Assembly (NCBI GenBank): GCA_028534125.1
Contig: CM052816.1
Span: 21,888,001 to 21,952,000, forward strand
Reading direction: 5' to 3'
Length of the DNA: 64,000 nt
Source of the DNA: Lama glama
Lineage: Eukaryota
Shown in pieces: positions 26,396 through 53,439 of the stretch; positions within the stretch are counted from its first letter, which is position 1, and every line of letters starts with the position of its first letter. The notes under the pieces were generated by a model, which saw only the letters and a program-made list of their open reading frames with translations, did no database searches and was not told the DNA's origin. Position numbers and translations under genes: made by a program.

Positions 26396-29300
26396 CTGTT
26401 GCAAGTTTTTAGATTTGTGGTTACCATAGATACAATATTGACCCATAATTATATCTGTGGGTTTTAAACTTGTAGTCATGTAAGTTCAAACACATTCTAA
26501 AAGATCTACATTTTAAATTCCCCCCAAAATATGTTTTTGATGCCATATTTTACATCTTCATGTTAATAGTTAATATAGTTGCTTTTATAATTTTTTGTTT
26601 TTTAATCTACATACTGGCTTATTTAAGTAATCTTTTGTTTTATTAAATACCTTTGTTTCTTAGTGGGATTTTCTCTCTCCTCTAGATTCTTACTTCTTTT
26701 CCACCCACAGACCTTTGAAAATTTCTTTCAGGATAGGTTTAAACCTGTATTGATGAATTCTTTTAGTTTTTGCTGGTCTGAGAAGTTTTTTATCTCTCCT
26801 TCTATTTTAAGTGATAATCTTACTGGGCAGAATATCCTCACTTGCAGGTTTTTCCCTTTCAGCACTTTGAATATATCATGTTGCTCCCTTCTGGTCTACA
26901 AAGTTTCTGCAGAGAGATCAGCTGATAGCCTTGTGGGGATTCCCTTGTAGATGACCCTTTGTTTTTCTTTTGCTGCCTTTGGACTTCTCTCTTTAACTTT
27001 TGCCTTTTTAGCAGAATTTTTCTTGGTATGGGTCTGTTTGGGACCTTCTGTGCTTCTTGTACCTGGCAGTCTGTTGCCTTCTTAGGTTTGTGAAGTTTTC
27101 AACCTTAATTTTGTCAAATACTTTTTTAGTCTCCATCTTTCTCTCTTCTTCTGGAACCCTTAAAATGTGAATGTTGTTGTGCTTAATGTTATCCCATAGA
27201 TCTTGTAGATAGTTTTTTAAAATTTGTCTTTTTTTTCCTCCTGTTCCAATTGGTTGATTTCCAGTATTCTATCTTCCAGATCAGTTACATGTTTTTCTGT
27301 ATCACTTAGTCTGCTATTTATTCCTTCTAGTGTGTTTTTTATTTCACTTGTTGAATTCTTCATTTCTTATGGTGTCTTTTTTATATTTTGTTTCCTTGTT
27401 AGAATGGTCAGTGTTTAGATCAATTATTTTCCCTAGTTCAGTTAACATTTTTATTACCAATGTTTTGATTTCTTTATCTGGTAAATTGCTTATTTCTGTT
27501 TTGTTATTTATTTTTTCAGGATTTTTTTCTTGCTCTTTCAGTTGAGAACAGTTCCACTGCCTTTTCATTTTAATTAATTTCTCTGCCTCTATGAATTTAA
27601 GAGCAACAGTTGCCTATTGTGGTCTTGAAGGAATGTCCTTATGTGAGAGTTTCCTTTTGTAGACTGTGTTCAACGCCTTTGGTGGGAGGGCTGGATTAGA
27701 TGTGGATGCCAATCATGTCTTTCTCAGGATGTGTTGGCAGCTATCAGCTTGGAAGGGGGTGGAGTTGGAAATGGAGGAGCTAGGACTTGTGCAGACTGTT
27801 AGGGAGGACTTCCTCTCTGCTGAGTGGCCATCACCACCCTCTCAGGGGTGGGAGTTGATTCCAGGTTGCTGGAGTGGAAGCCCTGAGGGTTGGATTCACA
27901 CTGACTCTGTTCCCTTTAAGTGTGTATTTTTCCTTCTCCACACACTGGGTCCCATGACCCAAAGGAGGGGAGTGCTGAAGCAAGTGGAGCTTGGGTGCCT
28001 GCAGAGGTCTCATGTTCTGCCTGTGTAGGTTGCTTCTTTTCCCCAGTCATGGCCACCCTAGATTAAACGACATGGTATATCATGGAGTGAGTGGGGCCAG
28101 AGTGTTTACTTGGCTTGGGCTGGGGTGCACAGTGAGGCAGTTGCAGGAAACTCAGTGGCTGTGTTGTGTCAGAAGTCTGGGTTACTTCTGGGTTGCTGCT
28201 TGAGTAAGTGCTAATAGTGGCTACCACTGCCCCACCTGGGCTCTGCCCCAGGATTGGGTCACCTCTGCATTCCAAGGTCGAGTCTTTTCCCTCTGCCCTG
28301 GACACCCTAGATCCAGTGCCATACTGTGGTGTGGACTGGGTAGGGCTGGGCATTCACTTGACTCAGGCTGGGCAACTAGGACAGACCTCTGTCTTTCCTG
28401 CATGGGGGCAAGCCAGCACCTGCATGCTCCTCATGAGTGGAGTCCAGGCTTTTTCAATTTTTCTATCTCTCCCAGTGGTTCTTCAACCAGCCAAGGGGCT
28501 TGTCTCTTACGCATAGGACCCCAGTATTGCAGTGCCCAGTCTGTGGCTCAACCTGCTCACTCCTCAGAGCAGTGTCCACCCTTGCAATCTCCCTTTTCCT
28601 CTTGAGTCCACTCACAGGGGCACCTGTCCTAACCCGATCACTTTTTTTCCTGATCCTACCTGATTACATGTATATCTTTCTTACAGTTTTGTTTATACAG
28701 GAATACTTCTGCCAGTTTCCAGTTAGTTTTCAATGAGAATTGTTCCACGTGTAGATGTATTTTTGATGTTCATGGGGGAAGGTGAGCTCTACATCCTCTT
28801 ACTCCACCATCTTGGTGTCTGTGTATGCTGATTTTAATCTATATCTTTTTGATATAGTAAACCATAACTATAAGTATAACGGCTTTTCTGAGTCCTGTGA
28901 ATCCTTCTAGCAAATATTTGAGCCTAAGGGTGGTCTTGGGAACTGATACATCTTTTATTTCTGGCTTCTTTTAAGTTCTCCTTATCTTGGATATACTATA
29001 ATTTCACTGGAATTTGTACATAAATGGGTTAATATTTTTGTTTGCTGTTCTTTTAAAATTCTAATTTCACTTAATATATTAGACTTCCTGAGTTTGTGGA
29101 CCTGTGTCTCACATCAATTTGGGAAATTTTTCACTATTATCCATTTTATTCTGTCACAAATGATAATTGGTATGTATTAGGCCTCCAGTAGTAAATGTTC
29201 CCATCCTACACATCTTTCAACCTCTCTTTAATATTTTTCATTTATTTACTGTATTCTAGATAATTTCTTCAGTGAGTCTCTCTTCAGCTGGACTTACTCT

Positions 29301-51570: not shown

Positions 51571-52346
51571 TTAGGTTTTTAAGTAGACTAAAATTCAGTG
51601 TTCATGCTAGTATACTATGCTTTCCTTTCTAGAATCCATTTTTGGTTTTGTTTTGTTGTAGTCAGCGTAAGTTGTTAAATCAGGCTTGGACACAATTAGC
51701 CATTGGCAACTAACTATAGCTCTGCCTGTAAGCGTCGGTTCCTAGAGTAAACAGTATATAAGGCCCAGTGGTGATAAGCCACTGGAGGGCTCCAGGATAG
51801 GAGAGACTTTTGACAGTAAAGCCTTAGGTGCCTTTCAATATTGTCTTTCATAGTTACTCCATTGAAAAAGATGATTAAGGATTACCCCCTTCTCTTCAGC
51901 CTTAAGTCTTTTACCTTACAGATTTTTGATGCTTGTCCTATCTAAGCTCCATTAAAGAATTTGGGAAAGAGGGTGCTTTCTAGGAGAAGATACTGCTGTA
52001 GGTTTCCTCTAGCAGGCCACCTTCCAGTGAAGTGAGAATTAAATGCAAGTCCAATAACTGCAATGAATATAAAATGATTGCTTTAAAAATAAAATTCTTG
52101 AAAGAAGTCTAATTTGATGAAGAAGGTTGTTTTAGAGTTAAATGTCCATAGGACGTAATTCATGTTTTGTTCAAAAAACAATTTCTGTATTTTTGTTTTA
52201 TTCTTTGTGCATGAACATTTTCTCGTATTGCCTGTAGCAGGAATTCTTAACCTGTTTTAACAGCCTCTTAATTGGTCTTTCGGTTATCACTCTTGCCTTT
52301 GTCCAACTATTGTCAACACTTCATCCTTTTGAAAAATTCTAATTCT

Positions 52347-52694
52347 TTTCTTTAGAATATGTTTTTATTGAAGTACAGTCAGTTTACAGTGTAGTGTCAA
52401 TTTCTGGTGTACAGCACAATGCTTCAGTCACATAGGAACATACATATATTCGTTCTCATATTATTCTTCACCATAGGTTACCACAAGATACTGAATGGTT
52501 CCCTGTGCTATACAGTATACACTTCTTGTTTATCGGATTTTGTGAGACTCCTCCTGTATTTCAAAATGAGAGACTCTGCTGGAGTTCAGTAGGTGTTCTG
52601 TGTGATTCAGTGGGTTTGTAGATGTAATTCTTGGTATATTTGTGGGAGAGGGTGATCAGTGAGTCTACTCTGCCATCTTGGCTCCGCCCACTCC
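52347..52694 (-). mobile_element. L1-derived mini-element: first ~160 nt of a 5'UTR fused to the last ~185 nt of a 3'UTR
   Basis: Minus strand starts GGAGTGGGCGGAGCCAAGATGGC. Junction at 52533/52534. The 3' part matches the L1 tails at 16432-16600 and 24800-24975. Degenerate TSD at 52332-52346 / 52695-52710. Confidence 0.85.
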
Positions 52695-53439
52695 AAAAAG
52701 TGCTAATTCTGATCATGATCAGGAGGCATAATGGTATAAAATTTAAAATCTCCAACACAGTGTTGTCTTGGACTCCAAGGGATAAGTTAGGTTGAGCGCT
52801 CAATGCAGTGCTTAGTCCATGGCTTTTAAGTTTTTACTATGATGATCTCATGCTTACGTATAAAACCACTCAGTTTAGGACTAAACTCCTTAAAATGGCT
52901 TGTGGTGCTGAGGCTTTTGTGAAGTCTCTAGCCTCGACTTTTTACTTTTTTAAAATAAGGTTATTTTTAAAAAATATAGCCATTGTATTAATATATTTAA
53001 CAGAATTAACAGAAATTTTATATTATTTATTCTTGGTCTATATTCAGATTTCCTCAGTTGTCTCAAGATGTCTTTTTACAGTAAATTTGTTTGAATCAGA
53101 ATCTTAAAAATGTCTACATATTGAATTTGCCAATATATTTAATTTTTATTCTATAACAGCTCCCCCTACTTTTAAAATATGATTTGTTGTTGAAACTGGG
53201 TCATTTTTCCTATTAAATTTCCCACATTCTCTATTTGGCTGTTTGCTTTCTATTGGTTTCCTTTAATTTACTAGTTCTCAGTGATATATGTTTTTAACAA
53301 GACTATGCGGTTGATTCTGAAGCTCAAGATTGAGAACCACTACTATAACCAGTGGAAGACTTCTCACACTGACTTCTGGGCCTTTTGACATAATCTGATC
53401 TCATTAATCTTTGGTAACTTCTTGCTTGCTTGTGGCCTT

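Follow-up and report, generated by a model that had tools for sequence, protein, structure and literature searches.

A 348-bp L1 element without open reading frames in a camelid genome, most likely a DNA copy of spliced L1 RNA

Splicing of L1 RNA in human cells is a minor leak that yields defective copies. In the available text of Larson et al. (2018, PMC5860796), the human elements called SpIREs use a donor at G98U99 and acceptors located in the 5'UTR or in ORF1, and they are described as having reduced promoter activity and as being retrotransposition-defective; the accessible portion of a 2025 preprint (10.1101/2025.02.02.635956) presents them as typically 'dead-on-arrival'. HAL1 is another derivative, an ORF1-only L1 which, according to the part of PMC5753468 that is available, arose several times in mammals.

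The element analysed here lies at positions 52347 to 52694 of a 64-kb window, by which we mean the whole stretch of DNA that was analysed, and it resembles these systems in some respects and departs from them in others. Like SpIREs, at least as the accessible text describes them, it has lost an internal L1 segment between a 5'UTR splice donor and a downstream acceptor, one donor and one acceptor are reused over many independent insertions, and the hallmarks of TPRT are present. The human acceptors, in the same account, lie in the 5'UTR or ORF1 and keep ORF2 and often ORF1, whereas the acceptor of the present element lies in the 3'UTR, so that both ORFs are gone and 0.35 kb is left. Copies of this kind, called minis below, also differ from SpIREs in that they equal or exceed in number the unspliced heads of their parent. 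Furthermore, the human work made use of RT-PCR, as far as the available text goes, whereas minis are known from genomic sequence alone.

With HAL1 the mini has in common that it is an L1 derivative without ORF2 and would depend on L1 proteins, but HAL1 encodes ORF1p and spreads as a lineage of its own, whereas the mini has no ORF and no lineage-specific substitutions. With processed pseudogenes it would share a spliced, polyadenylated Pol II transcript, copying by L1 in trans, a TSD and a dead-on-arrival product; the difference is that the 'gene' would be L1 itself, and the same retrocopy would have been made a few hundred times. SVA and SINEs are likewise short or ORF-less RNAs mobilised in trans by L1, and SVA, as we propose for the mini, derives neither from tRNA nor from 7SL. 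What sets those families apart is a subfamily tree of their own and diagnostic mutations, features that were looked for in the minis and not found. In the literature, to which our search was confined, we came across no description of an ORF-less class of L1 spliced from 5'UTR to 3'UTR, nor of such a camelid repeat, and a term search of the available text of a camelid TE survey (PMC8605555) gave no occurrence of 'spliced' or 'UTR'. The class may possibly have been catalogued already in Dfam or Repbase.

Structure of the element and related L1 sequences in the window

The element is one insertion on the minus strand, read from 52694 to 52347, in which bases 1-161 of an L1 5'UTR are followed by ~187 bases from the end of an L1 3'UTR, the junction being ...AAAATCCG^ATAAAC (a caret marks a boundary here and below). 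It is bracketed by copies of a 15-16 bp TSD. Its features, in reading order, and those of a comparator in the same window are as follows.

52695..52710, minus strand: upstream TSD copy, AGAATTAGCACTTTTT, abutting the first base of the L1 head
52534..52694, minus strand: 'exon 1', the first 161 nt of the L1 5'UTR, ending in ...CACAAAATCCG, with 86-89% identity to unspliced L1 5' ends of the same genome
52680-52672, minus strand: CAAGATGGC core inside the head, from sequence reading
52533..52534, minus strand: splice-type junction G^A, where ...ATCCG is joined to ATAAAC..., identical in 45 of 45 aligned copies
52347..52533, minus strand: 'exon 2', the last ~187 nt of the L1 3'UTR, ending in a short A-rich tail, with 88-92% identity to ordinary L1 tails
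52369-52364, minus strand: AATAAA in exon 2, from sequence reading
52332..52346, minus strand: downstream TSD copy, AGAATTAGAATTTTT, from sequence reading
28654..28830, minus strand: 5' end of another L1 subfamily, outside the element and used as comparator only; AATCAG^GTAGGA, boundary 28660/28659

The original prediction had described an intact L1 5' end fused to a 3' tail, with both ORFs missing and a degenerate TSD on either side, and the sequence from 52694 to 52347 bears this out. The element starts with GGAGTGGGCGGAGCCAAGATGGC, which is the start of the L1 5'UTR, and its content is limited to 161 nt of 5'UTR and 187 nt of 3'UTR, ORF1 and ORF2 both being absent; the two TSD copies, AGAATTAGCACTTTTT and AGAATTAGAATTTTT, differ by one mismatch and one indel. 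Across the junction (52534/52533) the sequence runs ...CACAAAATCCG^ATAAACAAG... or, in another and longer rendering, ...GGAGTCTCACAAAATCCG^ATAAACAAGAAGTGTATACTGTATAGCACAGGG.... The CAAGATGGC core of the head is presumably the YY1 site of L1 promoters. Insertion by TPRT is recognised by a single TSD enclosing the complete element, together with a poly(A) signal and a tail, all of which are present here. A HAL1 keeps ORF1 while losing ORF2, and the 348-bp element keeps neither.

Other L1 sequences of the window had been said to carry splice dinucleotides at the equivalent points, and this also holds. In the longer L1, the GT at 28660/28659 lies 155 nt from its CAAGATGG, the equivalent distance in the element being 147 nt. 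At the 3' side, three L1 tails of the window have AG directly before the homologue of ATAAAC, namely AAAATAG^ATTAAC at ~24973, GAATAG^ACAAAC at ~23805 and AAATAG^GTGAAC at ~16601, and their identity to the 3' half of the element is 82%, 73% and 86%, respectively. The comparator at 28654-28830 (minus strand) keeps a GT homologous to that of the GTAAG donor found in closer relatives, its GTAGGA being weaker on paper.

Splice signals in unspliced relatives and number of copies

The genome to which the window belongs (2.35 Gb) was searched with the 5' half of the element. Of the loci fetched besides that of the window copy, 29 in all, 17 proved to be minis and one further mini had a SINE within it, while in the remaining 11 the L1 sequence runs on beyond the breakpoint. 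These 11, pooled with 30 loci fetched by the unspliced pattern and made unique, gave 38 unique heads other than plain minis. The donor ...TCTCACAAAATC(CG/TG/CA)^GTA[AG]G is present in 36 of the 38, the two exceptions being L060, which has a deletion at the donor, and L048, which is the SINE-interrupted mini. The CG, TG and CA variants before the donor are the forms expected from the decay of an ancestral CpG. The consensus splice donor is MAG^GTRAGT, and CCG^GTAAGA fits it from -1 to +5.

When the 3' half of the element was used as query, the genome search returned mostly ordinary L1 tails. At the position of the 3' breakpoint these read ...GGGATAAATTGGGAGTTTGAGATTTGCAGATACTAACTAATATATATAAAATAG^ATAAACAACAAG..., that is, ...TACTAAC...AAAATAG^ATAAAC. 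Among the 22 tails with L1 sequence upstream, AG stands at the breakpoint in 18 as scored by script and in 20 on direct reading, two of the script misses being offsets from a 3-nt deletion. The branch-like TACTAAC lies ~18 nt upstream of the AG; an exact copy within 60 nt is present in 11 of the 22 tails, and YTRAY in 20. The tract between this motif and the AG is AT-rich, not pyrimidine-rich, and the acceptor is weak on paper. Since GT and AG stand at the two breakpoints, as the original prediction expected of the parent L1, the segment absent from the minis, which measures ~6 kb in full-length elements, is built like a GT-AG intron; judging from these motifs, its donor would be strong, its branch site close to the consensus and its acceptor modest.

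The junction itself is multi-copy, and not the one-off event that had been envisaged as a possibility. A 60-mer spanning it gave 40 scored matches among 218 candidates, all crossing the junction, with 90-95% identity. The junction is identical (AAAATCYR^ATAAAC) in 45 of 45 aligned copies, with a few point changes close by. Its 22-mer, TCTCACAAAATCYRATAAACAA, is matched exactly 107 times in the genome, whereas the reversed control is not matched at all, and 8 of 17 minis that were found independently of this pattern have it intact; the number of minis can therefore be put at ~230, a rough figure that includes some duplicated contigs. By the same rough reckoning, with the same inclusion of duplicated contigs, the 106 matches of the unspliced 19-mer TCTCACAAAATCYRGTAAG (0 for the control) and its recovery in 8 of 11 heads lead to ~145 unspliced heads. 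Identical inverted pairs of copies occur on the unplaced contigs C251271 (298129, 2021736), C140171 (7819, 389750) and C95731 (13845, 981233); they are probably assembly duplications, so that the copy counts are slightly inflated. As to the unspliced acceptor 22-mer, it has 6,128 exact matches and is common to several L1 subfamilies. The 107 junction matches thus equal ~2% of a total that spans these several subfamilies, a ratio that would agree with an abundant spliced RNA having been mobilised in trans.

A TSD of at least 10 nt, with at most 1 mismatch, was detected around 22 of 58 minis and in 3 of 58 cases in a displaced control. The finder is crude and misses copies with an extra 5' G or a truncation, so that 22 of 58 is a lower bound; clear TSDs of 13-22 nt can be read in example copies. 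Mini copies are separate insertions, many of which bear a TSD of their own. Three of the marks by which SpIREs are recognised, GT and AG at the deletion ends, signs of TPRT and the same junction in independent insertions, are found in the minis.

One contig, C37 (98 Mb, 4% of the genome), holds 21 of the 100 unspliced-head matches listed and 11 of the 100 mini matches listed. Long L1 copies may be concentrated on this contig, which is perhaps the X chromosome.

Source lineages and competing origins

Diagnostic substitutions unique to mini-copies, for which the original prediction had advised a search, are absent from both halves: when the minis were set against unspliced heads on the 5' side and similar tails on the 3' side, shifts in frequency were seen and no private substitution. 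The samples used in this and the following comparisons are small and were drawn by similarity to the window copy or by short patterns, and the alignments, of 156-190 columns, cover a region rich in decayed CpG. Over 156 nt of head, compared in 61 unique minis and 36 unique unspliced heads, two minis differ on average by 0.140, two unspliced heads by 0.147, and a mini and an unspliced head by 0.146. Nearest neighbours are distributed near randomly: for the minis they are 40 minis and 21 unspliced heads, for the unspliced heads 21 minis and 15 unspliced heads. On a FastTree of the 5' half, the mini/unspliced label requires 23 changes, against 29.2 +/- 2.2 when labels are shuffled, and 1 shuffle in 300 was as low. 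Minis are somewhat clustered on this tree, but far from forming one clade. Pairwise distances between whole minis are unimodal (0.137 +/- 0.021) with a minimum of 0.078. On the 3' side, tails chosen by the acceptor 22-mer differ by 0.189 among themselves and by 0.187 from minis, but they are of mixed subfamilies and hence not a fair control for the mini 3' halves; tails chosen by similarity to the window copy differ by 0.123 among themselves and by 0.136 from minis.

The heads exist in several variants, two of which, GGTTGAGCC and GGAGGTGCC, are linked to a C/T site ~140 nt downstream, a linkage seen among the minis (p=0.007) as well as among the unspliced heads (p=3e-5). About 8 kb was fetched for 40 unspliced-head loci, and the head was re-found in 37. 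Nine of these elements are full length (5.7-7.8 kb), nine belong to a family of ~3.2 kb, seven have other internal deletions and twelve have no tail within 8 kb. The GGTTGAGCC-type head is borne by 6 of the 9 full-length elements; it is also the commonest head among minis (26 of 58), and commoner there than among unspliced heads. The GGAGGTGCC head is found in 7 of 9 members of the 3.2-kb family and in 6 of the 7 other deleted elements. A third type, GGCRGAGCC, includes the window copy.

The ~3.2-kb family (L069, L192, L195, L200, L202, L205, L210, L214 and L216, with L205 at C6:52676336-52684536) is internally deleted: what remains is the 5'UTR, ORF1 and the inter-ORF spacer, followed directly by roughly the final 15 codons of ORF2 and the 3'UTR. 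The junction, ...ATCAAACCAGAAAAATACCATATG..., is common to these 9 of the 37 unspliced-head elements; it has microhomology, and full-length relatives have no GT-AG at this site. One copy matches the Pfam L1 ORF1 domains (Transposase_22, E=1.3e-19). This family is a HAL1-like lineage which spread independently, and it seems to have been among the sources of minis.

Markers in the 3' half point in the same direction as the heads. A 3' variant of the 3.2-kb family and the other deleted elements recurs in 6 of 9 minis with the GGAGGTGCC head, as against 7 of the 35 remaining minis (p=0.012), and this variant is carried by 13 of 15 elements of these two deleted groups as against 3 of 8 full-length elements (p=0.026). 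In minis, a C at one site of the 3' half goes with the GGCRGAGCC head (8 of 11 versus 3 of 46, p=1.4e-5); three of the 11 are loose regex matches. This C travels with three further 3' variants, and the resulting four-site haplotype is also present in ordinary 5'-truncated L1 tails, where the linked site is G in 11 of 14 C-tails and A in 25 of 29 T-tails. One unspliced element, L067, bears both the GGCRGAGCC head and the 3' C; the window copy has a 2-nt deletion at the 3' C/T site. Since the 5' and 3' markers that go together in minis are those of three or more source lineages, they argue for repeated splicing of source RNAs, and the simplest reading would be that the same splice acted on the transcripts of all these lineages. 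The markers identify three or more apparent sources: full-length L1 (GGTTGAGCC), the ~3.2-kb ORF1-only elements (GGAGGTGCC) and the GGCRGAGCC lineage to which the window copy belongs. Minis could also have been copied from minis during a short phase, especially those of the GGTTGAGCC type, which is over-represented among them.

We therefore come to the question of how the minis were made. The two halves join exactly where unspliced relatives bear GTAAG and AG, which is most likely the outcome of ordinary splicing of an L1 transcript. The element is quite probably a DNA copy of such a spliced RNA, and copies of this type would have been made recurrently, by reverse transcription in trans by L1 proteins. 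The spliceosome would remove the ~6 kb segment from GTAAG to AG, and it would do so many times, on transcripts of different source elements, rather than once in a mini master from which the others spread. As an RNA spliced in this way lacks any ORF, reverse transcription in trans, via its poly(A) tail, would have to be supplied by ORF1p and ORF2p of other L1s. An RNA of 0.35 kb would be copied end to end almost every time, and minis would in this manner come to equal or exceed the unspliced heads. Most L1 copies are 5'-truncated, so parity between complete minis and heads does not mean that minis represent a large share of insertion events. In our best reading, minis would be an extreme, ORF-less relative of the human SpIREs, generated by recurrent splicing and trans-mobilisation.

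A self-propagating non-autonomous lineage has to be weighed against this recurrent splicing. The 161-nt head with its CAAGATGGC core would drive Pol II transcription, the element would provide its own AATAAA, L1 proteins would do the copying, and most copies would descend from other minis. This agrees with the numbers, minis equalling or outnumbering unspliced heads (~230 against ~145) and 9 of the 37 unspliced-head elements examined being plainly full length, as well as with the enrichment of the GGTTGAGCC head among minis, their mild clustering on the tree and the fact that they begin at the same first bases as L1 heads; the 3.2-kb derivative, moreover, is a deleted form that spread as a lineage in the same genome. 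However, neither half contains a mini-private substitution, distances within and between classes are equal, the distances are star-like with no pair below 0.078, and the linked head and tail markers borne by minis are those of at least three lineages that exist as unspliced elements or ordinary tails. In addition, the available text of Larson et al. (2018, PMC5860796) reports that human L1 promoter activity is cut severely when the 5'UTR downstream of about base 98 is missing. We consider such a lineage unlikely. A bolder version, in which the 161-nt head is a working minimal L1 promoter and at least the GGTTGAGCC minis copied themselves as an L1 parasite of SINE size that Pol II transcribed, that had arisen by splicing and that for a short time outpaced its parent, would fit the figure of ~230 minis versus a few dozen plainly full-length parents; we judge it distinctly unlikely. 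The original prediction, that an ORF-less spliced L1 RNA was retrotransposed in trans and that the product could act as a Pol II-driven SINE-like family, thus gains strong support from the sequence for the splice origin and is confirmed for the multi-copy nature of the element, in view of GT/AG and the TSDs, while its self-propagating part finds no support in the lack of private sites, the equal distances, the 23 label changes on the tree and the at least three source haplotypes.

Two further scenarios dispense with the spliceosome. The segment might have been lost by a template switch during reverse transcription, or by a DNA deletion in one L1, and the product amplified later. A 1-nt overlap (G) at the junction is compatible with microhomology, and the 3.2-kb family, with microhomology and no GT-AG at its junction, indicates that such events occur and can spread. 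Yet the breakpoints of the minis fall exactly at CG^GTAAG and AG^, with TACTAAC ~18 nt upstream, and the same junction is found on at least three source haplotypes, whereas an accident would not recur to the base; we therefore regard this origin as very improbable. As for the idea that a 5' fragment and a separately inserted tail, two unrelated pieces of L1, came to adjoin by chance, the one point in its favour is that annotation software would list the element as two L1 fragments. Both halves lie within a single TSD, where the original prediction had left room for separate ones, the junction 22-mer has 107 matches as against 0 for the control, and all 45 aligned copies have the identical junction. 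Chance adjacency is accordingly rejected, its likelihood being practically nil.

Significance and age of the minis

If recurrent splicing is the origin of the minis, one L1 lineage of a large mammal would have possessed both a strong 5'UTR donor and a usable 3'UTR acceptor, and the ORF-less product would have been reintegrated a few hundred times, being written back at least as often as unspliced heads. Minis may then record how much of the L1 transcript output splicing can consume. Spliced and unspliced copies, matched to one another and derived from three or more apparent source lineages, would form a natural set for studying why L1 keeps or loses splice sites, and the same set could serve for the efficiency with which a bare head-plus-tail RNA is mobilised in trans. 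Repeat annotators presumably call minis two L1 fragments and overlook the class.

A mean pairwise distance of 0.137 corresponds to ~7% change per copy, and suggests that the mini copies are old. RNA-labelled public runs contain 0.28-0.38 of the sampled words. Assembled contigs of four runs cross both boundaries between element and flank (52100-52391 and 52664-52950) with 6-7 differences per ~290 nt. Over 52100-52950 the run contigs have a flank depth of 9-22 on both sides, ~2% differences and breaks inside the repeat; being assembled contigs, they cannot show transcription or splicing, and a depth that is the same on either flank resembles DNA or intronic background rather than a discrete transcript. 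Since these contigs bridge both boundaries with ~2% difference, the insertion would be common to a related organism diverged by ~2%.

In the SINE-interrupted mini (L048, C25:10205600-10208754), a tRNA-type SINE lies a few bases before the splice junction, at ~1650-1780 of the locus, and is flanked by duplicated TCACAAAATCCA. This SINE sits inside the mini, and was therefore still active after minis had been inserted.
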